Shown: in pieces, positions 12,342 through 63,733 of the stretch
Layout of the letters: the number at the start of each line of letters is the position of its first letter
Position numbering within the stretch: the first letter of the stretch is position 1
Assembly (NCBI GenBank): GCA_965649765.1
Contig: OZ287752.1
Span: forward strand, 25,792,001 to 25,856,000
DNA: 64,000 nt
Reading direction: 5' to 3'
DNA from: Bispira polyomma
Lineage: Eukaryota
Notes under the pieces: generated by a model
The model's database searches: none
What the model was told of the DNA's origin: nothing
The model's input: only the letters and a program-made list of their open reading frames with translations
Position numbers and translations under genes: made by a program

Positions 12342-13385
12342 TTTTGTAATTGTAATTGTCATCAGACTTTTATTGTGCTTAATCTCCCCTTAACAAAGGG
12401 GACTCTAAGGCGCACCAGCACAAAAGACAGTTATCCAATTTCCAAAATCAAGGGACAGAAAAAGGGTCAGCAACATAGAGCGCGCCGGGGGATGATTGAG
12501 ACTAAGGTGGATATGCTTTAGTGTACAAGTGGGTTTTAAGCTTCTTTCTAAAACAGGATAGTGAGGGGGAAGTACAAATCACATCAGGAAGACCATTCCA
12601 AACAATGGGAGCATCAAAAGCAAAGCTGTGACCAAACTGTTTTACCGACCTTTGAGTAGATGGGTGGAACTTCGGAACAACAAGGAAATTACTACCACTC
12701 TGACTACGTCTGGTATTGTAGGAACTACTGTAAGTGGAAAGATATGGGGCAAAATACTTTGGAAACCCAGTGTGGAGAAACTTATAAACAAGTGTAGCTG
12801 TCTTAAACACTGAACGCTGTCCAACAGGGAGCCAATGCAATTTCTTAAGAACAGGAGTTATACTAGTGTATCGACTGGTGTTTGACACAATTCTAGCTGC
12901 ACTATTTTGAATGCATTGTAATTTGCGTAAATTAAACTTTGAGAGACTCCTGAAAAGTGAATTGCAGTAATCCAGTCTACTACTGACAAAAGCACTGGCC
13001 ACAAGTATAGAAGCATCATAAGTGAGAAACCGTCTGACACGTCTAAAGTCACGGAGTTGCATAAAACAGCTTTTGCAGACACTCTGAACGTGTTTAGAAA
13101 AAGAAAAGTCAGAGTCAAACCATACACCCAGGTTCTTGACAGAATCAGCTGGACTGAAAGGGCTACCCAGGATGTCAACTGGAAACAATGCTTTTAACTT
13201 ATCCCTCTGTTGTTTTGAGCCAAAGATTATGAACTCAGTCTTGTCGGGATTAAGTTTGAGTTTACCAGTTGACATCCACTCTTTCACATCATCAATACAC
13301 CTGTTCAACTGTTCAAAGGCAGTAGATGTGTTTTTATGGGATAGGTGCACATAAATTTGGGTATCATCTGCATAAAAATGCATAA
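12342..13385 (-). mobile_element. 5'-truncated L2-clade LINE (RT C-terminal half, uninterrupted ORF 12502-13401) with 3' UTR stem-loop and (ACAATT)n tail
   Basis: HFYADDTQIY, KLNPDKTEF, SVKNLGVWFD, SRLDYCNSL, LHWLPV, FAFDAPIVWNGLP. The 3' UTR has a tcccct-ttgtta-agggga hairpin followed by acaatt repeats. Confidence 0.95.
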
Positions 13386-14494
13386 CGTATATATATATCA
13401 AGCGATGAAACTGAAACCGTACACATTGTGTTTTCAGTCAAAGTTACAAAATACTAAAGACACTTATAATAAAATAAAATGGTACATCTTAAACACAAGA
13501 CAACATACCACACTCGTTCATAAAGTACAACATCACTTACTGAACATTAGTTGTTATATTCATCAATTTACTTTGAAGTGACAATGTTTTGGCACATTGT
13601 GTGTCAATATGAAGAGTCATGTGACCTTTCTCTAACCAGTTTCTACGTAAAACTGCTTTCTGATTGGTCAGCTCCTCCCTAGAGACCGTGACATTCTTTT
13701 TTGTCAGAAATAGGTTCAAACTACACTGCCATGTAAAAAGTATTGAACAGCATTTATATCATTGTTTATACCATCGTACATCTTCATATACCAATTTTTC
13801 CATTCACGATGCAAGAAATATATGCAGAGAATCCACTGACATAGTAAGATGCTTTTTTAAAAGTTTTGAATATATGTATTTAGTATTTATGTAAAATATT
13901 TTGAGTAGTTTTATACATTTTCATTAACAATTTTTTTCATATTAATAATAATTAGACACAAACCGAATCTGAATTTCGCTAAAATGTTTTAAATATTCTC
14001 TTTTAATTTGAACTGTCTTTGTGATATGTATAAAATTGAAAACTAATTGACTTTTTTCATGAAACAGGAATAATATTTTTATATGTAATTATTTGACGGA
14101 CGGACATACTATTGCCTTGATAGAGTGTTCTTAATATTGTGTGTATTTATCACACACAAGAGTACTTTATATGTATGTTTATGAGAATAGTGTTGCAAAT
14201 AATATTGGGATAAATGATTACATGCAGTACATGGGTGAGAGAAAATCATGAGTTATATTATTGTAAATTAGTATGCGTCTATCAAAAAGTGATGAAATGA
14301 TATTCATATATATTTAAATTTTGTTTAACTTTGTGCTATATCTTTGTCAATTTAAATATCAGTTTAATTTGATTTCATTTTAATTAAATTTAGGACAAGA
14401 CAAAAATTATTTTCTCTCTACTATGTACGAGTTCAAAATCAAAAACTTTAAAAACATATATCAATGAGAGCGTGGGATATCGAGGAGCATCTGA

Positions 14495-15500
14495 CATTCG
14501 AGGATAGGCATTTTAGTTGCAATAAAAAGGTGTACTTTTACATGCTATGACACCTTCACAGACAAAGTTGTATGCAGTAGGGAACAATTTCCAATAACAC
14601 TGGCATTTGCGTTAACAATACACAAGGCTCAGGGAATGTCTCTGAATTATCTTGAGGTAGATTGTGCAACAATATTCTGTGCTGGGCAATTGGCTGTTGC
14701 TGTAGGTCGTGCTACAAACACACTTAGGTTAAGGGTGCTTAACTATAGCAGTTCTGCTGCCAAAATAAAACACGCCAGTAAGGTTAACTTGTTCTATGGT
14801 AAATTACATGAAGTGCAGAACACAAATGATTGCACATTAACATTTCCAGAGTCAAAGGGGTGCTGCAATGCAATTAGTTGCTCGAGTGTTGTATCTTGTG
14901 ACACACTTCCGAGTACAACACAACTTGTGCAACCACATCATTCAAATGTTGTTGACCAAAAAAGTAGTGAAATTCAAACTACCATTGTACAATCTTATCC
15001 TGTATTAAACATTCATGAAGTACCATCTCTCCCTGTACCAAAAATGCAAGAATTTTTCACATTTAATTTAGCATCACCAAATACAAAAATGCAAGAAGAT
15101 ATGGTGGATGCATTTTCTGACCTACAGCACAGTCCAAGATTTCCAAGATTTTGGAACAGCGTTCTTGCATTCACCTGTTCAGAATTAAGTGTTATGAATA
15201 AGCCCTCGAACAAAGAGTGGAATAACCATACCCAAAATTTTCATGACTATTTGACCAGTACAATTTTCAAACAATCGAAATCTGACCTTTTTGCAGACGT
15301 CAACTTAGATGATACTGTCATGCACAGCTTAGCATTCAAAATAGCTAAGAAGGCCAGGGATATAGCTCTTGTCACTAAAGCATATCCCCTTTGCTTGAAG
15401 TGGTAGAAGCAGATAAGGCTTTAGATGATACAGATTGTGTCCTGCTGCGTTACATTGCTGACTACACGATTGCTGCAGCCCGTAAAAGATACATAATGTA
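14495..15500 (+). pseudogene. Pif1-family helicase C-terminal block (motifs V-VI) plus extension; N-terminal helicase motifs absent; in-frame stop at 15404-15406
   Basis: The frame upstream of the listed ORF is open from 14495 and reads SREQFPITLAFALTIHKAQGMSLNYLEVDCATIFCAGQLAVAVGRATN, matching the Pif1 QFPLxLAxAxTIHKxQG and GQxxVAxxR motifs. Reading through the TAG gives LLRYIADYTIA. Confidence 0.85.
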
Positions 15501-15674
15501 TATATCAAGAGACAAATGTATGCTTTTCTATATCCCATTCCCTTTATTCTATTTCTTGTAATCCTTTAAGAATAAACTTTTTTATTAGTAATCACATTTG
15601 ACAACCCCCCCAAAAAAAAGTTATCACACCTAAGTTGACATTGTTTCTTGTAATTATTTTCTCTATTCAAACAG

Positions 15675-16478
15675 GTGTCATTCAGCATACGCAAAAAATC
15701 ATTAAGAAATATACTAACAAAGTGGCATCTCTTGAGATCGTTGACTGCCCCATACCAGCAAGTGATATCCATGACCAAGTATCCAGAAACATTTTCAGAA
15801 ATTAAGAGACATAACACCAGCGCTGGTGATGGCACCGGACTTACCTGTGTCAATGATGACACTTTTCACTTTTTCCTACAGCTGAACAAATTTGCACTTC
15901 AGTACGTTACTCAAAGTAACATAGACATTTACCAAGGGGAACTACATAAACTTGCTTTAAACAAAATTGCTACTAATGAAGATTTAATGCAAACATGGTT
16001 CGGACTGTTCAGTAATGATGTTGCCAGTGAAACTGATGAAGATCTATTTAATGTGAACTGCATTATTGTCTTTGAAGAATTGGTTTCTAAATTTTTAGTA
16101 ATTTTGTTAGCCGATACTAAGAAAAAATTGGTCGAAAGTAAGGGTACAGTTAAATGTAAAGCTTTAAGGAAAGAAATAACATGTGCTAACCCAGGTTTCA
16201 GTGAATGTATTAGTCAAACCAAGTCAGGTTATACAACATTGAAAAACGCTGTTAGTGAAATAGACTCAGACTACCCTTGTGGTACATGCGGCACAGAATG
16301 TGCTATAGACTGTATAGAATGCTCTCTCTGCAAATCGTGGTTTCATTACAACTGTTTGGGATTGGATGGAAGTGAAATTTTTATAACCAACATTAACATG
16401 GATTTCTACTGCCCAGACTGTGATGTTAAACCAAAACCTAGTAAAAAGAAAGGAAAAAAGAGAAAACACAATCAGTAA
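15675..16478 (+). CDS. Probable terminal exon with PHD finger and basic NLS-like tail (likely spliced to the Pif1 block)
   Basis: Follows a ttcaaacag acceptor. CGTCGTECAIDCIECSLCKSWFHYNCLG...FYCPDC is a C4HC3 PHD finger, followed by KPKPSKKKGKKRKH. Confidence 0.75.
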   Translation: MSFSIRKKSLRNILTKWHLLRSLTAPYQQVISMTKYPETFSEIKRHNTSAGDGTGLTCVNDDTFHFFLQLNKFALQYVTQSNIDIYQGELHKLALNKIATNEDLMQTWFGLFSNDVASETDEDLFNVNCIIVFEELVSKFLVILLADTKKKLVESKGTVKCKALRKEITCANPGFSECISQTKSGYTTLKNAVSEIDSDYPCGTCGTECAIDCIECSLCKSWFHYNCLGLDGSEIFITNINMDFYCPDCDVKPKPSKKKGKKRKHNQ

Positions 16479-16640
16479 CATAAAATTCATAACATAATGT
16501 AACAATTCATAATAATTATCCACTTTGTATACTTCCTAAACAAGCACCAATAATATTTGCAACATCATTCTTTGACTAGTGTTTAATTCTAAATTCAAGA
16601 GTTTGTGTAATATATTTGGATTCATTTACTATTTATTTAG

Positions 16641-18896
16641 GGTGTTGCAATGTTTGCAACGTGTGGAGGATTGTGATCCATTGCCTCTTAGGATAGCATA
16701 CGATGCCTACCGAGCTTCTTGCGCTACTTTTACAGTCGATGCTTGTTCCAAGGAACTTTTCTCCAAAGCCATCAATATTAAATTTCCAGCATGTAGAGTG
16801 AGGAGATTGTACAATGGCAGTAGCGAGGTCTGCTACAAAAACCTTGCTGCAAGAACTGATTTTATATATCGCATTGCCAGAGAACTATGTCCTTTTGGAA
16901 AAAGATACTCAGTACCTTCTTTTGTTAAAAAACACAGACATTATTGTAAGCAGTACTTACAGATTGCAAGTGAAAGTTAAAATTCAAAATTGTAAATGGG
17001 CTATGTTTGTGGGCGAAAAAGAAATTGATTTAAGTGCTTTGGGATTCTCAAGTAAATTTATTTGGAAGAAGAGTTGTCTATCATGTGTCATTTTTTTAGT
17101 GAATAACATCAGAATTTGCAAAGGGAAAGAACATGGTACAAATTCAAAGTATGTGTTCAATGAAACTACCACTTCCAACAGCAGCATCACCTCAACTTAC
17201 CGGAGCAAATATTGTTTAAAAGTTGTGTCACCTTTCTGTTATGGCAATGTTTGCTCCAACTGCATAAAGTATGTACCGAAGGTTGTTGACACCAAATCTT
17301 TGGAAAGTGTGACAAGTGCGACAGTAGAGTTTGATGATTACGATTCACATGATTTTCAAAGCGTGGCAGATTTTGCCTTGGCAAATGCCTCATCTGAGTT
17401 TCAATCATTTATTAATGGTCAAATTAAAAACATACAATAAACTCCCAAAGGCAGAAGGTGGGACCCATCATTTATTAACTTTTGTTTGGGTATATACATG
17501 AAGTCACCAAGTGTGTATGAGAAATTGCAGAATGGGGGTATGTTTATCTTACCAAGTGGCCACCTTCTTCAATACTATAAAAACAGTGTAAATCAGTCAA
17601 CAGGTTTAAAGGATGATGTGTTACTATGGATGAAGAAAGAGATCACAAGGTTAAAGATTTCGAGTGAGGGTTACTATGGGGGTTTCTTCTTGATGAGATG
17701 TCCATTCAACCTGATATTTCTATCAAAAAGTGTCACTCAACATTTCTATTGATTGGTCAGGCTGATATGGATGACACATCAAACCTAATGAACATAATTA
17801 CCCATGTAAAAAGTGAAATATCTTTATCCAAATATGTACTTCAGTATTTATTTCTGGGTCATACAGGTTTTAGGTTTCCTGTGGCACATTTTCCGTCAAT
17901 GGGAGCAAGTGCACACCAACTTTACAACACATTTTGGGATGAAGTAGACAAGCTATCAGAATATGGCTTTCATGTTGATTACTGTAGCTTGGATGGTGTC
18001 ATTTCAAACAGACAGTTTCGTTCTTTACATTTCACAGACTGTGATATCAGTGAAAAACAATTTGCTTCAGTCAGTTCAATCAACCCATCAAAATCTGTCA
18101 TATTCATACAAGACATCAAGCACAACCTGAAAAAAGTTTGTAATAGCTTAGTTAAAAGTAGTTCAACTTCAAACAATATTAGACATATAAAGCTTGATGG
18201 TAATTCTATTTTATGGTCCACATTTCGTCAATGTTATGAGTGGGACATTGAAAACCATGCTTTTCCCCTGTGCAGAAGTCTTTCTGAAGAACATTTTGAT
18301 TTGAGTAATTCCTCTAAAATGAGAAATAAGTTAGCAGAGGACGTACTGAATGATCAAATGTTAAACTTAATGTTACAATACCAGAAAACTATTAATCAGC
18401 CTGAGACACTTAATGGAGTAATAAAATTGTTGCAACATACTTCAATATTAGTTAAGTTTTCCCATGACTTAAAACCAGTATGTGATATCATTGATGAGAG
18501 ATTAAAAGACTTTGATAAAGTTGCAAAGTTTTTCAGTGAGTGGATAGGGAAAGATCAATTTTTACTCAGTAAAGAATGTCGTCAGGATTTACAGTCATAC
18601 CTCTCTGGTTTCAAAGGATTGTGTATTAAAGTATTTTCTCGTAATCAAGATAACTCATACTTAGTACCAGCCCGTATCAACAGTGATCCCATTGGAAATA
18701 GTTTTTGCCAGTATCGTGGTATAATGGGCTGAATACAAATCCTACATATGCTATGTATGGCCCCTCATCTACAACAGTTACACTGGATCAGAGTGTCGTA
18801 TCTAAAAAAAGAAATGCACATACACCTAGTAGGGGAAAAGAAAATGTAAAACCATTTGCCACATCAACACCAAATTCCTTGAGAAGAACGAACTAG
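16641..18896 (+). pseudogene. P-superfamily (THAP9-like) transposase preceded by an RFX-like winged-helix; several frameshifts/stops
   Basis: YDAYRASC...SKELFSKAINIKFPACRVRRL..GSSEVCYKNL (RFX-like); PKGRRWDP..CLGIYMKSPSVYEKL..LPS; DEMSI; LDGVISN; QDIKHNLKKVCN; KMRNKLA; NSDPIGNSFCQYR (catalytic E replaced by G); NTNPT. Confidence 0.85.
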
Positions 18897-19194
18897 CACA
18901 ATCTACAAAGGAAAGTACAATGGCTAAAGTTTTAAGATTATAATAAACTTAAAAATATGATGATTGCCTATATGGTTTTGAGTATTATTTTTGGTTACAA
19001 AATATCCTACTATATCTATATATTAAATAGAAAATGCAATGATTGCCTGTAAGGTTATAAGCGTGATTTTTATCGAAGAGGCCATTTATTTATGTATTAC
19101 TTTGTCCTTTACAATTGTTGACAATATCACTGCTTACATGGGTTAGCACATTCGTGGTTTTTTTTATTAGAAACTGTTATATATTGCTTGTATT

Positions 19195-19610
19195 TGTGAA
19201 TCCCCTAAGGGTGCCCACCTTAGGGCGTGCATGACATTCGTGAGAAGCATATGGTCTTACCGGGGCTAGTGTTATACTTGCAAGTATAAAGTGTATAAGC
19301 ATTGTTTGTATTGGTGCGAATATATATATATATAGGGACGGACAATATTCCATGTGTGAATCCCCTAAGGGTACCCACCTTAGGGCGTGCGTGAGATTCG
19401 TGAGAGCATATGGTCTTACCGGGGCTAGTGTTATACTTACAAGTATAAAAGTGTATAAGTATTGTTTGTATTGGTGCGAATACATATATATATAGAGACA
19501 GACTATATTCCATGTGTGAATCGCCTAAGGGTGCCCACCTTAGGGTGTGCGAGCAATTCGTGAGAAGCGTATAGTCTTACAGGGGCTAGTATAATACTTG
19601 CAAGTATAAA
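19195..19610. repeat. 160-bp tandem repeat, ~2.6 copies, palindrome-rich
   Basis: gtgaatcccctaagg recurs at ~19196, ~19356 and ~19516. Unit 1 contains the perfect palindrome ttatacttgcaagtataa, and the units carry a ccctaagg/ccttaggg hairpin. Confidence 0.95.
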
Positions 19611-20819
19611 AAGGCGAAGTTAGTGAAATACGTATAGATGGTGGAGCGGGCAGTACCATGTTTTTTCCCCAGCAAATTCTGTGACAATGTTGTATTACTG
19701 TCTGTAATAAATATTAAAATTGTTACATTTGCAGTAATTGACTACTATGGTTATTAGTAATATATTGAAATGTTATGGTATTAAACTTTTAATTAATGGT
19801 ACTATGGGTTGATTTCATTGCTAATGTCAACTTTCAATGTATAGTTAAAGAAAAGCGATGACTGCCTTATGCTTATGAGCAAAATTATTAGTGAGTAATA
19901 ATGTGTTCTGGGTTCCAATCCCAAATGAACTTTGACTGCAGTTTTTCATGGGGAATGTTCAGCAATTCACCTGTGTGTGCATTTGTGGGTCCTATATCTG
20001 TTTAATATTAACTGTCTGCACATATGCTGCTCTTTTATTTCAGCTAGGCATTCTTTCATTTATTTATATACTGGCAGAGAGATATTTTAAAATGTTTTTT
20101 TTTCTATCTTGATATAAATATGTACATTTCCCGCGTGACAGGTCAAAGGGTCAGAGGTCAAGAAAGCAAGATAGTAAGTAAGCAGAATGCGGTAAAATAT
20201 TTTATTGTTAGTCTATGTTAAACTACTATATACAACGTGACTTAAGGTCATGATAATTTGTAACTTTAAGTCATACTAAATTGAGTGAGAGTAATAAAAT
20301 ATTTTACATAACTTCAAAGAACAAGATAAGGTCACCCCAAGACAGTTTAAATAAGTGAAATGACAAAGCCCGTAGGGGACTTATAAATGGAGATGATCTT
20401 ATAATTTAGACTACAAAAAGGGGGGCTAAAGATCACCTTAAATACAGGTTAGTATACTAAATTTTTAACCCATAAGGGAATTACAAAATGAGGTGACCCT
20501 AAAATGTGTAGAAGAAGAGTTAAGTTGTAATTTTTCAGTTAATTACAGATTCTATTACCTTTTAATGAAACAGTTATTTCATGAAGTTGAATTACTAGTT
20601 GTAGCATACAATTACTAGGAAATAAAATACTACTGTGTGAAGTTAACTTTATAGTTGTAACATGAAATGACTAGCAAGTGAAATAATAATTGAAATTCTA
20701 TATGACACTATACATGACTAGCATGTGACTCCATGTAAAGCAAAAATTACATAATTATCTAGACTATGAAATATAGACTAAATTTTGAGTAGAAACACCC
20801 AAACCCAGCACGTAGGGAG

Positions 20820-21833
20820 CTAGGGAGAAGAAGTAGCAAGATGAAGGCGAAATGTGTCCGATACCTGCTGTCCCGCATCCACTGAGTCGGTAACATACCT
20901 CCACACGCAATCCGACGTCCAAGTGCCATGTTTTTGGATGTTCTGAATGCTGACGTTATGGTTAAAGGCAAAAGTGGCACCAGAACGTCGGAAAGCGTGC
21001 AGTGTGAGGCCAGAATCCTGCAACTGGAGCCTGGCAAATATCGTTTTGAAATGCCTGCGGACACGGGTGTCAGTAAGCGGAACCCAGTGAGATTTGTCTT
21101 TGAATTGAAATAAGGGTGAATTAGGTTCAGACGGAGTAAGAGCCATAATTGCCTGCAGTGACCCCACGGGGCAAAGAGGAGAACCCAGCAACCGTGGGAT
21201 AGTAATAAGTCTAATCTGATTATTACTCTGCATAGTTTTGGACCATTTTACCAAAAGGACAGCTTTGTCCCTGTGAAACATGACATCAGCCCTGGATAGA
21301 TGTCTCAAAGCAGAAAACTGAAGACAGGAATGGGGTACTAAATTGGATAACCTGAGGAAGGAAAAGTAGCTGACCAAATACACGGCCGTAAAGATAGGAC
21401 CCATGTAAGTGGTGTTGGAGACATTGACAATACTCGTCAGAAGAGGTATGTCTATAATCTTTTTGAGCTGAACATTTAAGGGGGCAGCCAATTGGACAGA
21501 CTTTTGATAGTAAGCCAAGCGAGGGTCACTGAAGGCAAGAATGGGCACATTGTATACAATACTCTTAGCTTTAATAGCAGTTAAATAATTAGCCATATGG
21601 GCAGGTTTTACAGAGTTAAAGTGTAAGAATTCTAAAAAAGCAAGAAGATCAATAGCTGTCACCTGGTCACAAGGCAGATCCGAGAAGGATGCATAAGCTT
21701 GGTACACCCTATACATCGCAGTATAAGATCTGTCCGTAGACCTGCAGAAGGCCAAGTGAAGCTTCTTCGTTGCATTTTGATATAATAACTGCTGCAGGGG
21801 AGTTGTAGCTATAACACAACACAAAGCAGACAA
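20820..21833 (-). CDS. Tyrosine recombinase (YR) of element 1; probably entered by splicing at 21808
   Basis: FLRLSNLVP (R), VKWSKT (K), LHAFRRSGAT (HxxR), HGTWTSDCVWRY (H/W, Y): the full catalytic set. The ORF begins at a TTG rather than an ATG. Confidence 0.95.
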   Translation of the reverse strand: MSALCCVIATTPLQQLLYQNATKKLHLAFCRSTDRSYTAMYRVYQAYASFSDLPCDQVTAIDLLAFLEFLHFNSVKPAHMANYLTAIKAKSIVYNVPILAFSDPRLAYYQKSVQLAAPLNVQLKKIIDIPLLTSIVNVSNTTYMGPIFTAVYLVSYFSFLRLSNLVPHSCLQFSALRHLSRADVMFHRDKAVLLVKWSKTMQSNNQIRLITIPRLLGSPLCPVGSLQAIMALTPSEPNSPLFQFKDKSHWVPLTDTRVRRHFKTIFARLQLQDSGLTLHAFRRSGATFAFNHNVSIQNIQKHGTWTSDCVWRYVTDSVDAGQQVSDTFRLHLATSSP

Positions 21834-21888
21834 AGTAACATTTGTAAAGGCTGATCAACATAATAGCATGCAAGCAGACAAGCAATAT

Positions 21889-24498
21889 CTAAATGTGGTG
21901 ATTGAGCCGTAAGTGGTCCTCCGTCAAGGCACACCATTGGACATCACCCACCAGCTCCTGTAAGAGAACATTATCCTTACTTGAATTTGTCCAACGAGAT
22001 AAGAGGTCAGCGGTGGTATTGTCATTTCCTAGAATATGAACCACCTGTATGTCTACATCGAGCTGGCTAGCCAGCATGAATATGTTCCGCGAGTACAGGG
22101 CTAATTCGCTATCTCTAGTTCTACCATGCGTAAGGACACTCACAACAGCCTGGTTATCACATTTAATTAACAGTCTACGTCCTTGCCAGTATTTGCCCCA
22201 CAACTTCAACGCCACATGAATGTTCAGCATCTCCAATGGAGCAATATTATGTTTGTGCATAGCAGCAGGAATGGGAAGGTAATATACTTGTTTGCCATAC
22301 ACTCCTCCCATGCCTGTTAGGCAGGCATCCAACTCTACAATGTCAGTGATGGGGGCATGATGAAAAAATGTCACCCCATTGTATTTCTGGAGAAACTGAA
22401 TGAACCAGTTAAGGTCCTTTTTGAAGTCAGGGTTAATTTTGATACTTGTTTTGTGGTGATTGCTTCGGAGGAGCTGCAACATCCGATTCAGAAAAAATCG
22501 TGAGTACTTCACGCATTTAGAAATATACAGCAAAGAACCCAATAAACATTGGAGCTCCCGCTTAGTACACTGCTTTTTATCACTCCAATTGGCACACATT
22601 TTTTGAACCTGAGCTAGTTTGTCCTCTGGTATCGATGTAGTGAACCGAACTGTATCTATAACTATACCTAGGCAGGTTACCCGGGTGGCTGGAGGAACCA
22701 GCTTCTTCTTGCTAAGAGTCAAAACCAACTCGGCCAAAAGGGCCTGCAGTCGGTGGTATGTTTCATAGATTTTTGAGGGAACAGAAGAACATAAGAGATC
22801 GTCGATATAGTTGGTGATTTTATGACCTTCACCTTCCATAATATACCGTATACTGTCAGAAATTCTCTGAAAAATCACTGAACCGTGTCGGTAGCCAAAG
22901 GGCAACGAGCCGTCGAGATAGTAGCCATCCCAGTATAAGCCCAGACGATTGATGTCTCTTGGGTCTATGGTCACGTGACGGAATGCGCGACTAATATCCG
23001 CTTTAAATAGCAAGGAGCCCCTACCGTTTTGCAACACTTGTTTGGTTATGTCATCTATAGAAGGGTAAGTAAGTACAAATTCCTTGTCCAGATACAAATT
23101 TGAGGACACCGCTGCATTAACCGAATGACCGATGGGCCAACTGAGATCTATTATAACTCGTCGGTTAACCGAGCTTGACTTGTCTCTAGTCATAAATGGA
23201 GATGTGTGGACATCATCAATTGGGGGATGGACGAAAGGTCCATACATAGCACCCATAGAACATTCTTCTTTCAGGTAATGGTTCACATGCTCAGGATATT
23301 GATTGGCTGAAGCATGATTGTTCAAGTCAGACTTGAAGTCATGTTCTTCATTACAGTCAAGAGGAAATCCGAATTTTATCAGTAAGGGGAGCTCCCAATC
23401 CCAATAATTCGCTAAATACTTTTCCCAGGCAGGGACCGTCAGTTGGGTGTGTATGGGAACTTGTAAACCCTTATAATTTGGTCTCCCATCCAATTTAAGG
23501 GCCTTATGCAGTGTAAACACATCTGTGATCAATTGGTTATTGGAGCAATCAATCACTGGGGTACCCCAGGAACTAGTTGGTATGAACCCATACTTCCCAC
23601 TATTCTGTATATCCCACAACTTGTAGGTCACATTATCTTTAGCTGCATTTAAGCGCTGTCTCTTATCAAGGCCTCCTGAGAGGTCCAGTACATACTTGTC
23701 ATCACACGGGTTAGATCTCTTGTTAGGTGGTGGAATAGTGCAATCGACCCTACCTAACGTGTCACTCGAGTCAGGAAGTGGAATAGGTGTGAAATCGACC
23801 TTACCGACCGTGTTAATAGATTCAGGAAGTTCTACATCAGGAATGTCTAGGCCACTAAACCGGTTATGCATGGGAAGGTGAAACCCACTATTGTTAGCAT
23901 TACTTGAAGTGGTACCCGCGCCAATTGTATTCACACGCAGAGAACCCCGCCGTTTAGGCCCCCCTTGGGCATCACTTAGTTCAATTGTTTTGGACACAAT
24001 TGGTTGATTTTGTAACACCCGGTTTGCATGGTTACCGACCCGCCTATTCACGGAAGTTTTCACACCACCCAAAGGTGTTTTTCTTAACACCTTTTGGGGA
24101 ATTGTTTTCTCACGTCGCCTGTCAGCTGGTGTATTTAACACTTTCACGGGTGAATGCCTCCCTCCCGACACCTTGTGCAATGAGGTATTATGGAACACAA
24201 GTTTGCTACCTTGTGGGGTTCTATTAACAGAAACAGGGTTAACTTCCCCCATTTCCCGGTTTTCACCAATCTCGATACCAGGAACCACAACGCCCTGTTG
24301 CAACACGTCCTGGTATGACCTGTTCAGTCGGGGTCCAGTATACATATTGTATTTACAACACACATGATCAAACAGTTTAAAATCCCTAAAAGTAGAATTA
24401 TATACAACTCTGGAGCAGGTTTCACGTACAAGTTTCTTAGCAGCCACTGCAATACTGCAGTGGCCCCTTAGTTTTTTGAGACCGATTTTTTGAAGCAC
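21889..24498 (-). CDS. Reverse transcriptase + RNase H (pol) of element 1, in the -1 frame relative to gag
   Basis: RRVIIDLS, KADISRAFR, LPFGYRHG, NYIDD, CLGIVID; RNase H ELDAC, LEMLN, CDNQAVV, ADLLSRW. Confidence 0.95.
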   Translation of the reverse strand: MLQKIGLKKLRGHCSIAVAAKKLVRETCSRVVYNSTFRDFKLFDHVCCKYNMYTGPRLNRSYQDVLQQGVVVPGIEIGENREMGEVNPVSVNRTPQGSKLVFHNTSLHKVSGGRHSPVKVLNTPADRRREKTIPQKVLRKTPLGGVKTSVNRRVGNHANRVLQNQPIVSKTIELSDAQGGPKRRGSLRVNTIGAGTTSSNANNSGFHLPMHNRFSGLDIPDVELPESINTVGKVDFTPIPLPDSSDTLGRVDCTIPPPNKRSNPCDDKYVLDLSGGLDKRQRLNAAKDNVTYKLWDIQNSGKYGFIPTSSWGTPVIDCSNNQLITDVFTLHKALKLDGRPNYKGLQVPIHTQLTVPAWEKYLANYWDWELPLLIKFGFPLDCNEEHDFKSDLNNHASANQYPEHVNHYLKEECSMGAMYGPFVHPPIDDVHTSPFMTRDKSSSVNRRVIIDLSWPIGHSVNAAVSSNLYLDKEFVLTYPSIDDITKQVLQNGRGSLLFKADISRAFRHVTIDPRDINRLGLYWDGYYLDGSLPFGYRHGSVIFQRISDSIRYIMEGEGHKITNYIDDLLCSSVPSKIYETYHRLQALLAELVLTLSKKKLVPPATRVTCLGIVIDTVRFTTSIPEDKLAQVQKMCANWSDKKQCTKRELQCLLGSLLYISKCVKYSRFFLNRMLQLLRSNHHKTSIKINPDFKKDLNWFIQFLQKYNGVTFFHHAPITDIVELDACLTGMGGVYGKQVYYLPIPAAMHKHNIAPLEMLNIHVALKLWGKYWQGRRLLIKCDNQAVVSVLTHGRTRDSELALYSRNIFMLASQLDVDIQVVHILGNDNTTADLLSRWTNSSKDNVLLQELVGDVQWCALTEDHLRLNHHI
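24443..24477 (-). promoter_or_regulatory. -1 programmed ribosomal frameshift signal (A_AAA_AAC + 6-nt spacer + 9-bp hairpin)
   Basis: Minus strand reads tcA AAA AAC taa ggg GCCACTGCA gtat TGCAGTGGC. The -1 frame is the pol ORF. Confidence 0.8.
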
Positions 24499-25463
24499 AA
24501 CTTGGTTTGATGCGGGCCACCACAGCTCTCACAGCAGTGTTTGAACCACTGTCCAGAAGTGCGATGGCTGGCATCAAATTTACACGTGCCTTCCTGAAAA
24601 AATCGACAGTTTACTCCCGCTGTTTTCATCGAGGTTTTACCCCTACTGCCAATATTGCTTCTAGAAAGGCCAGACCCACTAGCTGAGGACGTTACATGAC
24701 GCTGTGCATGAGCGCGCCTTATCCGGTCGACCTTTTCGACATCCGTCCAATTCAGTCGGTCCATTTCCATGTTGGTCAACAAAATGGCGTGAGCGGCTTT
24801 GGCGGCATCCCACGAAAAATCATGGGCGTCATCCATCAGGCATGCCAGATATTCCAACATAGCCTCGCGGACCGAGGAGTCTTTTTGCTCTTGCGTACAG
24901 CGAACAAACCCGGAAATGAACTGAACCAAAGTAAGGTCATCGTAAGTGGGTCTAACCTTTTTTACACCCGACAAGACAAAATTTTGTGGCCAATCAACAT
25001 GACGTTTAACGGGAGCTTCCGCGCCACCTCTTTGGGATTTCAGTTTACCTCCCGTTAAATCGTGGAGTTGTTGCAGTTGCAGCAAACGCTGGTCTACCTG
25101 ACTTTGTAAGCTGGAATTTGAACGCAGGTAATCTAGGGAGGGCACAACGGCCTCAATCACTGGTTCACTAACACTAGGGACATTAGATACAGATTTAGAA
25201 ACTGTATTACATGCCTGCGCGCTGGGTTTACACAGCGCCGCCTCAGTAGCTTGTACTCGTTGATCCATGCTGTCCATCTTCTCGTTCATTACAACCAGTT
25301 GTTGAAGTATCAAACTAGATACGGAATCAGAAACAGCAGGCACAGCAGGATCAACGGCAGCCACCTCATCAGCGACGCTGTCCAACGGATTAAATTTACA
25401 TTTCTTTCCAACTGGACGTCCGTGCCGACCAGAACATACACTACACGGGTATTCCTTAGGCAT
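24468..25463 (-). CDS. Gag-like ORF1 of element 1 (ATG at MPKEYPC)
   Basis: N-terminal CSVCSGRHGRPVGKKC, coiled-coil segments, WPQ..YDDLTLVQF core and a C-terminal CRFFQEGTC...H...HCCESC...H..C Cys/His cluster. Confidence 0.85.
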   Translation of the reverse strand: MPKEYPCSVCSGRHGRPVGKKCKFNPLDSVADEVAAVDPAVPAVSDSVSSLILQQLVVMNEKMDSMDQRVQATEAALCKPSAQACNTVSKSVSNVPSVSEPVIEAVVPSLDYLRSNSSLQSQVDQRLLQLQQLHDLTGGKLKSQRGGAEAPVKRHVDWPQNFVLSGVKKVRPTYDDLTLVQFISGFVRCTQEQKDSSVREAMLEYLACLMDDAHDFSWDAAKAAHAILLTNMEMDRLNWTDVEKVDRIRRAHAQRHVTSSASGSGLSRSNIGSRGKTSMKTAGVNCRFFQEGTCKFDASHRTSGQWFKHCCESCGGPHQTKLCFKKSVSKN

Positions 25464-26869
25464 GACTACACCTTCAACTAAAATATAAACAATATCTGGG
25501 TAGTAAAAGCCCTGGGTAGTAAAAACCCCAATTGTAAAAACACTTGTATCTATGAACTGTTTTTCACTAATGATGGCGCCTGTTGGCGGCAATCCCTTTT
25601 ATACTTGCCCCCGTGACCCCAGGTGGCTTAATTAGCCTCTCAGTGACCTGCCACCAGAACTGAGGGGGGCTGTCGCACGGGCGTCAGCCCACCAAAAATG
25701 GTTACTGTTTACCCAGTACCCAGCTCAGTGGCAAGTCCAGAAAGGTAAGTAAAGGTACCCTCAAGATATAAGACAATTTGAGGGATAAAAAAAAAATTTA
25801 TTTACATGTTAGTAAAAATATTACATTTACTAGTTTTTTAGAGTGACTACTTTTATATACAGTCTGTGGTCATCGTAAACTAACTAAGGTGAGCAGATTA
25901 AGTTTCTACTTCAATACGTTGAAGTTAAGGTCACCATTTGAGCAATCTTAACTAAGGTGACTTTAAGTTAAGGTGAGTTACAGTTTCTAGATTTTACATG
26001 CAATTTAAGTTAAGGTTACTAACTTTACTAAGGTAAACTTAATTAAAGTTAAGCTTACGTAAAACATATACATGCAATAAAAGAGTATAATTACAGAACG
26101 TATAATTGCAGTAAAACAAGATTAATTACAGATGAAAGATAAGATCAGAATGATTTGTTATTCTGATATAAACTGCATTATATATTTACCATACTGATTA
26201 TTTGTGTAAATATACCTTTTTAACCAAATATGATATTTACTGTTAGTGTATAAAACCACCAATTAAAAACAACATATAAGGAAGATGTAAAAGTTTATAC
26301 TAAAATACTAAGAAAATTTAAAATATTGATTTAATTACAGAAAAGACTGCATGCACATGCGGCACAGGAAGATCCCCTAGCTCAGCTGGAACAGTCCTGT
26401 GTGGCCGAACAATACGACCCCTTATGGCCTTAGTTACAGAAATCTCAGCAAACAAACGATTGGGATCAGTGCACTATCAGCCCCTCTGTTGTAAACCTTT
26501 ATTATGAATATCAGCTGGGATGTACCAACACCAACGACCAACGTTCACAGGAGGTGATGAAACCCCACGAAGATGACACACACTTGCACCCCAGCTAGTA
26601 GGATCAGTCATGATTGGTAAGGATGCACCCCAAATCTACTGGGTGATCCGATCGCTGCATGAGCGACGAGAAAGCTGGGCATTACTTGCCAGCAGCCATG
26701 AACACACTAGATTCATCCACACAACATCATACTCAATTGAGCATTTGATTTGATAGACATTACACTCTTTAAGCACAAGCACAATATACGAGCCCCAGGG
26801 GGCGATTTGAGGAACAGAACTTGGGTTGGCAGTATTGTGCTGAAAGCCACATCCCTTTTCATCCTGCAA

Positions 26870-41708: not shown

Positions 41709-42866
41709 ATGACCAAATGCCACCTGGCTAAGCAAGTTGCACATTGCGACCGATGTAACTTTAAGCACCAGAGACCAGTTAGGGAAGAATGCCCTTTCAC
41801 TGCTGACACAGAAGCTATCTCCAACGCACATGTGTCAGATGATGATTCAGCGTCCTCCCTTCTCCAGCTGGGACAGACAGCACGGGATTCCCCTAGCAAG
41901 GACACTGCCACTACTGAAGAGTGCAGACCTGGGATATCAGCAGCGCCGTCGGAGATGTCAATGATCCTGCACCACTTGCAGCGGCTCGAAAGGCAGATTG
42001 AGGAGGTAAAGAATGACGGGCGTCGTGAGGGTGAGACCATTACACATGCTAACCCAAGCCCCTCAGGGGTCGTCGTTAACCCCCTGGCTCAGAGCGTTTC
42101 ACCCCACAATGTAACACCCCAGAGTAGTGACAACCCCCATGCAGGTGCTGGCATCCACACGGCAGCTGCCAATCGCCCTGTAGCCGCGGCCGGAGTCGAC
42201 CAGGCGATTCTCCCATCCCTGGCCTTTCTGTGCGACAACGCACACCTTCAACGAAGGGTAGATCAACAGCTGCAACTACTGGAGGAAGCAGACAAGCTGG
42301 ACATTTCTGGTAAGAAGATTAAGTCTGGTCTCTATCGTTCAGGGGAGCTCCAGGTGAAATTTGAAGTAAACTGGCTTCATGAGTATGTTTTAAATAGTGA
42401 CAGACAGGCAATTCAGTATGATAATTTAACACCAGTACAATTTAGTCAAGGTTTATTGCAATGTATTTTGGAAGAAGCGGACCCAAAAGTTATGTTGCAA
42501 AATGGGGTACAATTATTCCAAGATTGTCAGGAAACTAATTGGTATACTGCCCGTTCGGCCCACAAAGTTGTTCTCCAACAAGTAGAAAGAGGTAAACTCG
42601 ACGGGAGTAATAAAGGCGATATCAATAACACTAGAGCTCGATTCACGCAGAGAACTATATACCCTAGTAGTACTACAAAAACAGCCACGGCTAAACCTGT
42701 TGGCAACCCCTGTTTGGATTATAACAAAGGCTTTTGCCCCTCTAAATCTGACCACACGGAAAATGGTTCCCTTATGAAACATGGTTGCTCTCATTGTTTT
42801 AAACAAGAAGTGAAGTGTAATAAAAAAGTGGCAATTTGCCAAAAAACTGAGAAAGCCAGTGAATAG
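41709..42866 (+). CDS. Gag-like ORF of element 2 (small C-terminal deletion/frameshift)
   Basis: CDRCNFKHQRPVREEC; LQRRVDQQL; YDNLTPVQF; CLDYNKGFC..H..HGCSHC, all homologous to the element 1 gag. Confidence 0.8.
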   Translation: MTKCHLAKQVAHCDRCNFKHQRPVREECPFTADTEAISNAHVSDDDSASSLLQLGQTARDSPSKDTATTEECRPGISAAPSEMSMILHHLQRLERQIEEVKNDGRREGETITHANPSPSGVVVNPLAQSVSPHNVTPQSSDNPHAGAGIHTAAANRPVAAAGVDQAILPSLAFLCDNAHLQRRVDQQLQLLEEADKLDISGKKIKSGLYRSGELQVKFEVNWLHEYVLNSDRQAIQYDNLTPVQFSQGLLQCILEEADPKVMLQNGVQLFQDCQETNWYTARSAHKVVLQQVERGKLDGSNKGDINNTRARFTQRTIYPSSTTKTATAKPVGNPCLDYNKGFCPSKSDHTENGSLMKHGCSHCFKQEVKCNKKVAICQKTEKASE

Positions 42867-45320
42867 TTCAAGTAGTGAGACTGTATCTAGAGTAGTATGG
42901 AATTCGAGTTATAATCACTGTGACCAACAGAAACGGACTCCTATAAAATCTTATGTTGTAGATACTAATGTACAAGTTATATATCATGTTAGTGGTTTGT
43001 CCAGTAGCAAAATTCATAAACATGATTGTGCTACAAATGGCGCGTTTAGTGTGAAAAACAGTGCATGTAATTCTTTTTCAGCAACAGGCAGCAATACTGG
43101 TGAGTCGTATACACAAAGCCCTGGTAATATTGTCCATTGCTCTCGTGTTAACCTAGACATAGACAACTTGAATCAGAGGACCCAAAATGGAAGTGATGAA
43201 GCACATGACTATGATCATGGCAATATTTTGGCAGATTTAAATGATCCCCTTGTTAAACTAATTAAAACTGCTGCAGACGGCATGAACAGTACTGCTGCTT
43301 GGGGGGGGGGGGGGGGGAAGGGGGCTGACCCTAAATATGGGTTATACAGCACGTGTGTGCAGTGGCATTAGAAATGTTAGTTCTAAAAAATATGATCCTA
43401 ATAAGATGCCTGGTGGAAATCAGTGTGCTGATATTTCTGAAAACTCTGATATAGTGGCTATATATTCTGCTGTCGAGAATAAAAACATTTTTTCAGTTAC
43501 TCAAGGAACAATATGGTGACAGAGTGTTAAGAAACCCATCATTATGCAAGAGTATAATGGTAAAGCATTTGCTGGATCACTGACACAGGAGTTCGGCTTT
43601 ATTAATACTTGTAGTACTGATTATTATCTGGCTGGTACTTATACAGTACTTGAAAGCTCTAGTTTCAATGACTGGGTTATTCAGGCTCATAACATAGTAA
43701 AAGCCAGTGGTTGTCATAATTATCAGAAGGCGAGAGTTAAAGTCCCTTCCAGCTACAACTTCCCTGTGCTTTATAATTTGCTCAAGAACTACAAAGACCC
43801 AAAATTATTTGAATACTTGTTATTCGAGTTCCCCTTGTGTGTAGATTATAATAGTTTCACTTATAATGAAGCTGCTTGTAACCACGCATCTTCACTCAAA
43901 TATCCAGATGACATTCAGATATATATAGACACAGAAATCGCTCACAAAGCTTTAGCAGGACCGTTTTGTAAATAAAAACCCTCTTACCACTTCATGTTTC
44001 CCCCCTTCTTTCCTGACCTAAACCGGGGTCCAGTAGGAGGGTTATAGTCAATTTGTCGCATCCGTACGGCTCATCCGTAAACAGTAATGTGTTGGACGGC
44101 ATATATGACGACCATGAATTTGAACTCAGTTATCCGAACGTTGATGATATTGTGGCTGAAATAGTGTGTATTGGGCCGGAAGCTAAGTTGTTCAAGCTGG
44201 ACATCAGTCGCGCTTTTTGAAACGTAAAGATAGATCCAAGAAACTATGATGTCACTGCCCTTTATTGGGATGACGCTTATTATCTAGACGCCAGTACCGT
44301 GTTCAGCTATAAACACGGATCTGTTCAGATGCAAAGACTAGTCGACCTAATCAGGGACGTTTTAGGTCAGCAGGGCTACGCCATTAAAGGATACGTCAAC
44401 GACGTGATTGGAATAGCGTCACCCAGTACTGCTGACGCAGGGTTTGCTTCCCTAGTCAATTTGATTGATGCTATGGACCTTCCTATTAATTTAAAAAAGC
44501 TTGAACCTCCCAGGGAAACTGTCACGTGTATGGGCATTGTGGTTAAGGCCAGGGAGGGTAAGATCGAAATCTTAACTGAAAAATTAGAAGAGGTAAAAAG
44601 ATGTTGTGCCTCATGGATTGGTCGAACACAGGTGAGTCAACGTGACCTCCCATCTCTTTTGGGTCGCCTTCTTTATATACATAAAGGTGTTGTCTCTGCA
44701 CGTCTTTTCGTTAATAGAATGCTTAGTACCCTTAGGGGCTCCCATAACAGCCGTCTTATTGAGCTTGACAGTGAATTCCATAAGGATATCTGGTGGTTTC
44801 ACACCTTCTTGGAGCACTTTAACGGGGTGGTATTAATACACAAAATGGTAACCCCTGATGTTCAGGTCAAGGTTGATGCTAGCCTTACTGGGGTAGGTGC
44901 CATATGGGAAAACAATGTATATGCAGCCACGGTCCCACTCGAATTAATACAACAATGTACTATTGTTCATCTAGAAATGGCAAACATCTTGGTTACGCTT
45001 AATGTTTGGGGCCATTTATGGCGAGGTAAATATGTCGAAATTCTGTGTGATAATTGGGCAGTGGTCCAGGTCATGTCATATGGCTGTACTAGAGTCAAAA
45101 TATTGATGTCATATGCACGCACTATCTGGTGGATTTTGGCCTGTAATGATATTAAGTTGAAAGTGGTCCATATTATAGGAGTGGATAATGGGGAAGCAGA
45201 TTGCCTCTCGCGTTGGTTTAGTGGGGGTACTAGTAGAATACTTGTGAAGTAATTGTCAAAAGCTCACTGGTGGATGGTCACAAAAGATCACTTCTTACCA
45301 GATTGTTCTATTTAATTCTA
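42859..45320 (+). pseudogene. RT/RNase H of element 2, fragmented
   Basis: NYQKARVKVPS, RRVIVNLS, KLDISRAF*, GYVNDVIG (YIDD mutated), VDASLTG, LEMAN, CDN, ADCLSRW. A poly-G run lies at ~43300-43317. Confidence 0.9.
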
Positions 45321-45333
45321 TTTTTAACCCTAG

Positions 45334-46112
45334 GTCCTTCCATGGCAAACAGACTGCTTAGGCAAGCTGAGTTGAAAATCCCTCTGGCCCATAAACCCCG
45401 CACCAGGGTAGCTTATGCTTCACAATTTAAAACTTATTTGGCTCTAGCTTTATTTTGGGATATACAGGATTTTACTACTCTTTCCGTTGTGTTGATTTTT
45501 ATTGAATTTCTTGCAACTTCGGGGTTGTCCCACCCTAGTATTCAAAATTATATATCTAGTGTTAAGCACTATTTCATATTCTTTGGATTACCTCCGACTG
45601 TTTTCACTCACCTTAAAGTGAAAATGTTCCTCAAATCTATTGCTATTAATTCTCCCTTTATACCCAGAATAAAAGGAGTCATTACTATTAGTATGCTAGA
45701 ACAGTTAATACTTAAATGTGCACCTATTCGAGATGTAATTGTTTATAAGGCATTGTTCTTGGTTTCCTTTTTTGGTCAAAGACCATACAAAGATATGATC
45801 AATTCCAAATTGTTCAATTGCCTCGGTTACTAAATAGGGCAATTTGCCCTACCAAGGCCCTTAAAGACATGTTTAATGCCTGCCCTTCACTTCCATCTCA
45901 CCCCGTGTTTCTGTTACGTTTAAAGTTGGGGCTGCGTCCCCTGTTGGCCTCTAAGGCGCGTCAAGTGTTGGCTGCTTTATGGCTTTCGTTGGGCTACCAG
46001 CTTCCTTCGTATCCATGGTAATTGGAAGAGTGATGCTATATTTGCAAATTTAGAGCAAAACAATTCGGCTAACAAAGTTGCCACTAGTTTCCAACAAATC
46101 CTTTTAAATTAA
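45334..46112 (+). pseudogene. YR of element 2 with two internal deletions removing the catalytic R and HxxR segments
   Basis: AHKPRTRVAY..FIEFL..NYISSVK..FLVSFFG jumps to WSKTIQ..LPRL..ICP, then jumps to HGNWKSDAI. Confidence 0.85.
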
Positions 46113-59045: not shown

Positions 59046-60056
59046 TTACGTTGTAGTGATATGTTTTTTGAAAATGCAGGCAACTGAGGCCGCCGCTTCG
59101 GGTGTAGTTTCTAGATAGTGCCAAATTGCCTGACTCTTCCACCCCCCATGGGCCTGAATACTCTGCAACTGCAAATTTTTATTAAACACAAAAGAAGCGC
59201 CCGAACGCCTAAAGGCATGAAACCCATAATTTGTATATTTAATCTGCAATTTATTCAATATAACAGCCAGACCTTTTCTAACTTTGTATGCAGTAAGAGG
59301 TACCAGTGTTTTGCCTTTTGGTATTACAAACAAGGGAGAATTACCTGTGATTTGAAAAACATTTATCAGTTTTTTGATTGCATGAACAGGACACAAGGCT
59401 GAGTGTTCTAATTTAGGAATTTGCACTATCTGCACTTTGTTTGAACCCTGCATGGCTTTTTGCCATTTGACCACCAAGTGAGCCCCTGGAGCTGCAAATA
59501 TGACATCATTTACAGTAAAGTGTCTAGTCATGTCAAACGAATACATTGAGTTTGGAACCATATTGGACAATCTGAAAAATTCATAATATGCTACCAAAAA
59601 GATAGCTCTATACACCACTTCATTGTTAAGATCCCTGCAAGCCAATGATATGCTCTCAATGTCCTGTATACTAAAAACTCCTTTGATTTTAGGTGCATAA
59701 GGTGAATTGATAGCCACCGACTTAATAAATAACCCAATTTTCCTGTGAGCAAAGTGTGTGGTTGACAACCCATATAAACAGAAGAAATGCTTGATAGCCG
59801 AGACATAATTCTGCAACCCCTGTGCTGCATTACCCTGTAGCACCAAATACTCTAAGAACATTAGCAAGGCATGGAGGGATTTATAGGACACACGAAAATA
59901 TATTGTAAAAGCAAGAAACAAATTAAATTTGCCTTTATAAGCACTGGTTGTACGTGGTCTTAAGGCACAATCTATTCTTGCATCTGCCCCTCGCAGTAGC
60001 TGATTGCCCATCTTAGTACCTACAATTTTAAATAGTAAAATCTGGCAAAAATGCAC
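59046..60056 (-). CDS. Tyrosine recombinase of element 3 (probably entered by splicing at 60019)
   Basis: FFRLSNMVP, VKWQK, LCPV, FHAFRRSGAS, HGGWKSQAIWHY. Confidence 0.92.
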   Translation of the reverse strand: MHFCQILLFKIVGTKMGNQLLRGADARIDCALRPRTTSAYKGKFNLFLAFTIYFRVSYKSLHALLMFLEYLVLQGNAAQGLQNYVSAIKHFFCLYGLSTTHFAHRKIGLFIKSVAINSPYAPKIKGVFSIQDIESISLACRDLNNEVVYRAIFLVAYYEFFRLSNMVPNSMYSFDMTRHFTVNDVIFAAPGAHLVVKWQKAMQGSNKVQIVQIPKLEHSALCPVHAIKKLINVFQITGNSPLFVIPKGKTLVPLTAYKVRKGLAVILNKLQIKYTNYGFHAFRRSGASFVFNKNLQLQSIQAHGGWKSQAIWHYLETTPEAAASVACIFKKHITTT

Positions 60057-62782: not shown

Positions 62783-63733
62783 GACATTCTATTACATTCA
62801 CATTGTTTGTGGGGCAGAAACCTTTTTGTTGTATTAAAACAATACAAACAAGCATGTTTCATTATTTTTCCCCCTCTGCGTGATCTACATGAGAGCTGCA
62901 AGTGTTGTTATTAAACTTCAAACAAATGACTTCCTTTTTCCCTTGCCCCGCAGAATATTTACCCCACTGCTGATTTCCGTTGCTTTGCAACGTGCGTTGC
63001 GTATTTCGCATGCGAATTCGATCAATTGTCTCAAAATTTAGCCAAGTACACTTGCCACGCTCCATGGTTTGGAGAACTATACTATGAGCTCGTTTAACCG
63101 TACCCCAGTTGGTCTCCATGGCATCCTGCATTAGCAGTTTTAAATACTCTAGCATATTGTCCTTGACCTTTTTACTGGTTTCTTCCTGTACACAACCAAT
63201 GGACCCAAACATAAATTGGAAGGGGGTAAGCTCTTCGTACTTGGGATTTCTCCCACTCATACCAGTATAACAAAACTCATGGGGCCAAGCCACGTGGGCC
63301 TTATTCTTTTGCTCATTAACACGTAATAAACCTGATTTAGAGTCCCGTTCACAACCATGTAAGTTCTTGATCTGTAACTGTACTTGCTTCTGGATCTCCT
63401 CGTTGTTCTTCAGAAACTGTGGATCTGGCATGACACTGTCATTCTCTTCATCTGATAAATTCTCGTAAATAGTAGCCACCTTTCTGGTAGACACGTGGAA
63501 CCTTTTGGAGCAATTTTTTGTAAAATCAAAGTCAATGGATCAGCCCCTGTGGTCGCAGACGTGGCCATCTGTAGATTGGGTCCCCCAGTAGCACCTTCAG
63601 TTTCTGTGACTTCTCCTTCTACTTCTTCCCGCTCAGTTGTCTCGTTTCTCCTGCAATTCCTCCCCACAGGACGCACATGTAGTGGTTCTTTCCCCAACTT
63701 CTCACACGCTGTACAGTGAAATGTACTCGTACT
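62740..63733 (-). pseudogene. Gag-like ORF of element 3 (two frameshifts)
   Basis: CTACEKLGKEPLHVRPVGRNC; FLKNNEEIQKQV; WPHEF..YEELTPFQF; CLKFNNNTC..H; ends ..MSKNG. Confidence 0.8.

Follow-up and report, generated by a model that had tools for sequence, protein, structure and literature searches.

Ngaro elements (order DIRS) have in common with the elements described here a gag gene, a pol gene with reverse transcriptase (RT) as well as RNase H and without methyltransferase, a tyrosine recombinase (YR) gene in last position, and split direct repeats. The excerpts available from PMC4157794 and PMC6681497 include split direct repeats in the order A1-ORFs-B1-A2-B2 among the defining features of Ngaro. 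In the excerpts available from PMC3783388, PMC8547959 and bioRxiv 2021.08.05.455354, the Ngaro YR is described as a third open reading frame (ORF), in frame or frameshifted; these excerpts contain neither a splice nor a Gag-YR fusion, both of which are predicted here. DIRS-1 of Dictyostelium and the PAT-like elements are also three-ORF YR retrotransposons, and PAT shares the split direct repeats. According to the accessible part of PMC5633606, both carry a methyltransferase, and DIRS-1 possesses inverted repeats and an ORF3 overlapping ORF2. In contrast, the elements described here lack a methyltransferase, and their repeats are direct.

The part of PMC7192593 that could be accessed mentions no natural splice in DIRS-1, splicing there being that of a reporter intron. 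Similarly, no natural splice to YR is described in the accessible parts of PMC7192593, PMC9341512, PMC4157794, PMC4495291, bioRxiv 2021.08.05.455354 and PMC6681497, or in those of PMC8547959, PMC12477816, PMC3783388, PMC3266345 and PMC5633606. Neither literature searches nor these portions of the YR-retrotransposon literature gave a description of spliced YR expression, and these portions contain no account of how the third ORF of such elements is translated or how the recombinase reaches the cDNA; an earlier mention in the original Ngaro work, the 2015 review or Repbase is possible. A conserved splice would be a concrete answer to both questions, testable by one PCR.

LTR elements bring integrase to the cDNA by placing it in Gag-Pol. 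In the env mRNA of retroviruses and the pol mRNA of foamy viruses, the downstream gene is reached by splicing out most of gag-pol; the product is envelope or Pol with at most a few Gag residues, whereas here a structured Gag part of 140-270 aa is predicted to be carried by the recombinase. In Ty1/Copia, a spliced subgenomic gag RNA reportedly sets protein ratios. That splice gives Gag alone and integrase stays in the Pol polyprotein, whereas the splice predicted here would give the N-terminal part of Gag fused to YR (GagN-YR).

Ngaro-like elements in the analysed window

The window, that is the whole stretch of DNA analysed, comprises 64,000 nt of the Bispira polyomma genome (GCA_965649765.1, 1.04 Gb; contig OZ287752.1, positions 25,792,001-25,856,000, forward strand). 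Three Ngaro-like YR retrotransposons are present within these 64 kb. Element 1 extends from repeat A1 to repeat B1 (25694-20125, minus strand), and its gag, pol (RT and RNase H) and YR frames are all open. It belongs to a young family, for which the genome search gave at least 22 near-full-length copies with 96-100% identity. Elements 2 and 3 are older; pol is broken in both of them, and in element 2 YR is broken as well.

The gag of element 1 encodes 331 aa from ATG to stop (24468..25463, minus), in which no Pfam family was found. The pol frame (21889..24528, minus; 879 aa from stop to stop) contains RT and RNase H, the only families that Pfam gives there; no methyltransferase follows the RNase H, and pol ends about 40 aa past the RNase H motif ADLLSRW. 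The YR exon (20820..21808, minus), identified by Pfam and alignment, possesses the catalytic R, K, HxxR, H/W and Y residues. Repeat A1 (25532..25694, minus; 163 nt) recurs at 98.8% identity 3' of B1 in the sister copies L002, L014, L025 and L028, and B1 (20125..20801, minus) measures about 677 nt. The complete layout A1-ORFs-B1-A2-B2 was found in sisters of element 1, with A of 163 nt and B of about 676 nt, 99-100% identical within a copy. The window copy retains A1 and B1 only, without A2 and B2. Full-length copies contain about 570 nt between A2 and B2, including an 86-nt tandem repeat (L014:7231-7800).

Gag, RT/RNase H and YR follow one another in this order on one strand, as in Ngaro, and by gene order, domains and repeat layout the elements fit Ngaro, as judged from the published feature descriptions. 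A DIRS1-like assignment of element 1 was rejected, since its repeats are direct, not inverted, and methyltransferase is missing; a PAT-like assignment agrees with the repeats and was rejected for the missing methyltransferase.

Copies of family 1 begin after TGGT, or TAGT in one of them (5' junctions in the window at 25694-25698, minus, and in L003-L019). TGGT is also found at their B1/A2 junction, and this recurrence suggests recombination into a short target motif. A 160-nt tandem unit in three to four copies adjoins element 1 (19192-19610). Decayed ORFs at 14495-18732 (plus) resemble the end of a PIF1-like helicase, a PHD finger and a transposase of THAP/P type, and fragments at 12502-13437 (minus) and 57457-57996 (minus) are what we take to be LINE reverse transcriptase and LINE ORF1/NADAR-type proteins. 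Genome-wide, each full YR query gave about 13,000 first-look candidates, with many young families possessing intact ORFs. As far as the genome sequence can tell, the Ngaro-like elements of this species are an unusually large and recent radiation.

Predicted splice donor in gag and acceptor before YR

Loci were picked by YR similarity alone, to test whether G/GTAA (the slash marks the exon boundary) is a mere Gly-Lys pair. The sample consisted of 123 loci of this genome, corresponding to 53 families at 85% nucleotide identity and 34 at 75%. The YR proteins of 26 representatives are 26-81% identical (median 37%), and synonymous divergence between pairs is 0.54-0.91. A donor region could be read in 88 of the 123 loci and 41 of the 53 families. 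The donor was defined by amino acids only, as the last Gly within 10 residues before a KS[GQ] motif, and the definitions of donor and acceptor were both written after the sequences had been viewed. In L135 this rule took another GGT, the locus's own site being mutated. L130 was left out of all counts; refetched as L167, it possesses both donor and acceptor and stands outside the tallies. In alignment A1, frames starting with TTG or CTG are displayed as M and are not real ATGs.

The predicted donor of element 1, GAG/GTAAAC (25043..25051, minus; last exon base 25049), is in phase 1 and present in 22 of 22 family copies. That of element 2, CTG/GTAAGA (42307..42315, plus; 42309/42310), is in phase 1 from the ATG at 41709. 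Both donors lie at the homologous Gly, which is found family-wide. The coding distance from the gag ATG to the donor is 415 nt in element 1 and 601 nt in element 2. The original prediction placed a phase-1 donor in every gag of the window and an in-frame join in all three elements, which holds for elements 1 and 2. In element 3, however, the homologous donor is missing from the corresponding gag region (63330..63356, minus), through a 15-nt deletion near 63340 relative to its sisters. The candidates put forward for this element, ATG/GTTGTG at 63355 and CAG/GTTTAT at 63331, are not at the homologous site, as revealed by the sisters L081 and L165, which carry a G/GTACG donor at the homologous Gly. 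A further sister, L160, lost the donor through another deletion.

The donor Gly, at the end of the Gag N-terminal helix, is encoded by GGT in 40 of 41 families, or in 25 of 26 at 75% clustering. The third base of the preceding codon (donor position -2) is A in 34 of 41 families, and position +3 is A in 41 of 41, though the residue that follows may be K, M, T, I or R. The distance from the donor to KS[GQ] varies from 3 to 9 codons among families. By comparison, GGT accounts for 1081 of 3232 other Gly codons in the same elements (33%), 73 of 269 other Gly-Lys pairs (27%), 13 of 31 codons for the neighbouring Gly of KSG, and 7 of 21, 10 of 26 and 6 of 25 codons at three conserved YR glycines; A precedes other Gly codons in 25% of cases. 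The excess of GGT at the donor has p values of 3e-18 against other Gly codons and 7e-22 against Gly-Lys pairs, which are nominal since the families are related. The donor bases are conserved at synonymous positions beyond these controls, and the constraint acts on the nucleotides.

The lone exception is the L097 family, in which one of six copies (L163, with an intact gag end) carries the donor. The other five (L097, L098, L161, L162 and L164) are more than 99% identical to each other, have a broken gag-pol besides lacking the donor, and are spread over three contigs; they were probably moved in trans or duplicated. An intact or lost donor could serve as a sequence marker for classing copies. 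The strength of the donor is moderate, and 14 of 15 elements contain, within gag or ahead of it, some other GT whose match to the U1 motif is as good or better; among the alternative GT sites of these 15 elements, none was seen to recur at a homologous place across clades.

Before YR, phase-1 acceptors are present in all three elements, exactly where they had been predicted. In element 1 a T-rich tract is followed by TTATAG/CT (21804..21833, minus; 21809/21808, first exon base 21808), found in 22 of 22 family copies. Element 2 has CCCTAG/GT (45310..45344, plus; 45333/45334), and element 3 has TTGTAG/GT at the start of its YR frame (59046..60040, minus; 60020/60019). Throughout the sample, a phase-1 YAG lies 9 or 12 nt before a reference YR codon in 50 of 53 families, and any other YAG offset from -60 to +30 occurs in at most 13. 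The first 29 families served to set these offsets; of the 24 families that came later, 22 conform to them. One of the three misses, L079, is shifted by one base next to a run of A; the other two, L125 and L137, have internal deletions. T occupies position -6 in 48 of 50 families and -5 in 46 of 50, and G follows at +1 in 40 of 50. The 20 nt upstream are poor in AG (13 vs 50 in a control window), and the branch-point-like motif YTRAY is enriched (24 vs 9 of 50). The features of a GT-AG intron found in the sequence are donor and acceptor consensus, matching phase, a T-rich tract and AG exclusion, and the predicted splice pair is beyond reasonable chance.

In 39 families, 375 TTNYAG sites were scanned from the donor to YR; none of them was a conserved phase-1 acceptor before pol, so that the gag donor has a single evident partner. 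A layout in which one donor serves several acceptors was rejected for pol.

The predicted GagN-YR protein

Because synonymous positions are conserved (in 41-53 families), the phases match, the start codon is missing and the stretch before the first Met is constrained (see below), it is highly probable that YR is made from a spliced RNA as a GagN-YR fusion, joining the gag donor to the YR acceptor, in agreement with the central claim of the original prediction. Unspliced RNA would provide Gag, Gag-Pol (by -1 frameshift or stop readthrough, depending on the family) and the genome. Removal of an intron of 2.7-3.3 kb would give GagN-YR starting at the gag ATG, with a length of 467 aa in element 1 by phase arithmetic.

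The predicted coding part of exon 1 in element 1 (25049..25463, minus), deduced from alignment A2, a model and phase arithmetic, comprises 138 codons plus 1 nt. It encodes a C2HC zinc finger (aa 7-22) and a coiled-coil helix (aa 45-77), followed by a conserved helix (aa 110-137), the end of which coincides with the donor. The predicted intron (21809..25048, minus; 3240 nt) contains the Gag helical core, the C-terminal Cys/His motifs of Gag and the whole of pol. The Gag core predicted to be spliced out was modelled as four helices with a pLDDT of 77, in addition to the Cys/His motifs. The structure search gave no Foldseek match at E 0.001, and sequence searches likewise gave nothing clear; the best VIA match had a Z of 5.5 (rmsd 3.3, 81 aligned) and was among unrelated helical proteins. 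The capsid label for this core is given by position only.

For pol of element 1, a -1 frameshift signal is predicted at the gag stop (24442..24477, minus), consisting of the heptamer A AAA AAC (24477-24471) and a hairpin. This hairpin, of 10 bp and 3' of the slippery site, is found in the clade of element 1 and is kept through paired changes in L074. Related families, including the loci L101, L104, L108, L153, L159, L100, L179 and L181, would reach pol in two ways. A -1 frameshift for pol, as originally proposed, agrees with the slippery heptamer in 13 of the 25 families with an intact gag end. It does not extend to 6 of the 25, in which pol lies in frame behind a single stop, as it also does in two elements from a metagenome (L179 and L181); this arrangement suggests stop readthrough. 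One transcript may support a three-protein program with two recoding modes, -1 frameshift or readthrough according to family.

The coiled coil is common to GagN-YR and full-length Gag, and through it the recombinase would co-assemble with Gag and Gag-Pol and be brought to the cDNA. This tethering is the weakest step of the proposed mechanism, and we favour it only slightly. The GagN monomer was modelled with a mean pLDDT of 71 and a pTM of 0.24. The three-copy model contains a coiled-coil bundle at aa 48-77 with a score of 0.44, against 0.01 for the best control; its pLDDT is 43, and low-pLDDT coiled coils are a class that readily associates in such models. Of 30 solved homo-pairs, 21 attained the score mark, and of 23 single chains none did; runs agree in at least 44% of contacts. 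The tether role suggested earlier for the Gag piece is weakly supported by this model.

Alternatively, the splice may only borrow the gag start codon and set YR dosage, the Gag piece having no tethering role, a reading that competes with the tethering step only and that we regard as possible, if somewhat doubtful. It would fit the varying length of exon 1, about 140-270 aa among families, and the composition of the Gag N-terminus. The original prediction named a zinc finger and coiled coil as the fused part, which is correct for element 1; the finger is not universal, since one clade (L101, L104, L108, L121, L155 and L157) has a long basic Gag N-terminus without C2HC finger and with the donor position unchanged. 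Moreover, Gag needs these modules anyway, which makes their conservation uninformative on the fusion. Against mere borrowing of a start codon, the donor is always located just after the last conserved Gag helix, at a domain boundary and away from the ATG, and the coiled coil self-associates in the model. For the animal Ngaro-like group, we consider it evenly balanced whether YR is delivered as a spliced, coiled-coil co-assembling GagN-YR, with three Gag-anchored proteins per transcript through splicing and recoding, and database YR ORFs short by 140-270 N-terminal residues. If the predicted splice takes place, the protein for biochemists to express would be GagN-YR, not the ORF3 call, and Ngaro YR annotation models would be truncated.

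Translation of YR and relatives in other genomes

Element 1 lacks an ATG at the start of its YR frame, as had been stated, its first Met being codon 32 after the acceptor. Similarly, in 35 of 50 families the 31 codons that follow the acceptor contain no Met; the first Met is often found at codon 54-191 or not at all within 200. Invariant residues are nevertheless present between acceptor and first Met in the YR alignment, and the pN/pS of this stretch is 0.14, 0.36, 0.27 and 0.46 in four clades (disjoint pairs). The stretch is under purifying selection in 4 of 4 clades tested. Since it is constrained coding sequence without Met, YR translation must enter from upstream in phase 1.

Entry from unspliced RNA, by re-initiation past the pol stop, by a frameshift or readthrough that continues from pol, or by a non-AUG start, would leave the splice motifs incidental and is very unlikely. 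It would agree with the in-frame Met found upstream of the acceptor in 11 of 50 families and in 10 of 22 copies of family 1, and with the genomic searches and DNA-like runs, which revealed no spliced copy or read. However, 26 of 50 families lack both an upstream Met and an early one, and in the spacer upstream of the acceptor an in-frame stop usually occurs within 2-30 codons. The frame of this spacer shifts through one-base indels even among sisters that are 96-99% identical. The T tracts of family 1 differ by a one-base indel: in 10 of 22 copies it brings the upstream ATG in frame, and in the others the ATG is out of frame, as is more to be expected of a non-coding than of a coding tract. 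Furthermore, YAG, T tract, AG exclusion and the codon bias at the donor would have no protein-level explanation.

The searches for spliced products covered databases, this genome and sequencing runs. None of 270 database proteins, apparently ORF calls made on DNA, matches both the GagN and YR profiles, and looking for longer, fused proteins by alignment gave none. A probe for spliced genomic copies (donor without G) had 0 matches among the best-scoring candidates in this genome. Six YR matches (L121-L126) and three gag matches (L168-L170) with long frames correspond to mutations, deletions or tandem copies and show no splice join, and no donor-acceptor join was found in eight family-1 gag matches (L171-L178). 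The joint 21808/25049 is absent from three sequencing runs that behave as genomic DNA, with the flanks covered and the element about 15-20 times higher in cover, and this absence has no bearing on expression.

Still less credible is an acceptor that is real and joined to a non-coding leader, as a cis exon or trans-spliced, with YR beginning at its own ATG. A Met within 18 codons of the acceptor was found in 15 of 50 families, including elements 2 and 3 (ATG at codon 4, 45342 and 60011), and the five donor-less copies of the L097 family have a Met at codon 7. Nonetheless, this explanation fails because the Met-less stretch past the acceptor is under purifying selection, and it leaves the conserved gag donor unexplained. 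Conservation of the sites in other families, a check named in the original prediction, came out in favour of GagN-YR. That GGT is fixed by another RNA signal (packaging, structure), or that the donor pairs with an acceptor elsewhere, would agree with the moderate donor strength and is the least probable reading of all, the constrained positions being those of a 5' splice site and no conserved phase-1 acceptor preceding pol in 39 families.

Signs of the same splice sites were found beyond this genome. A scan of an unrelated metagenome sample revealed five loci, three of them clear relatives with YR 29-37% identical. All three possess a phase-1 YAG before YR and no early Met. The two relatives with gag (L179 and L181) carry CAAG/GTAAT and TCAG/GTAAT just past the helix; these donors were chosen by eye, and in L179 the Gly rule would select a GGC. 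In Gag proteins of other genomes, the linker contains a Gly in 62 of 70, followed by K, N, T, M or I, residues with codons that start with A, in 54 of 62 (background 25%). The YR proteins of other genomes show [FILV][SVALTIP]G, the trace of TTNYAG/G, in 13 of the 17 (out of 120) that reach far enough upstream, against a background of 2%. These protein traces are indirect and point to the splice as a group-wide trait.
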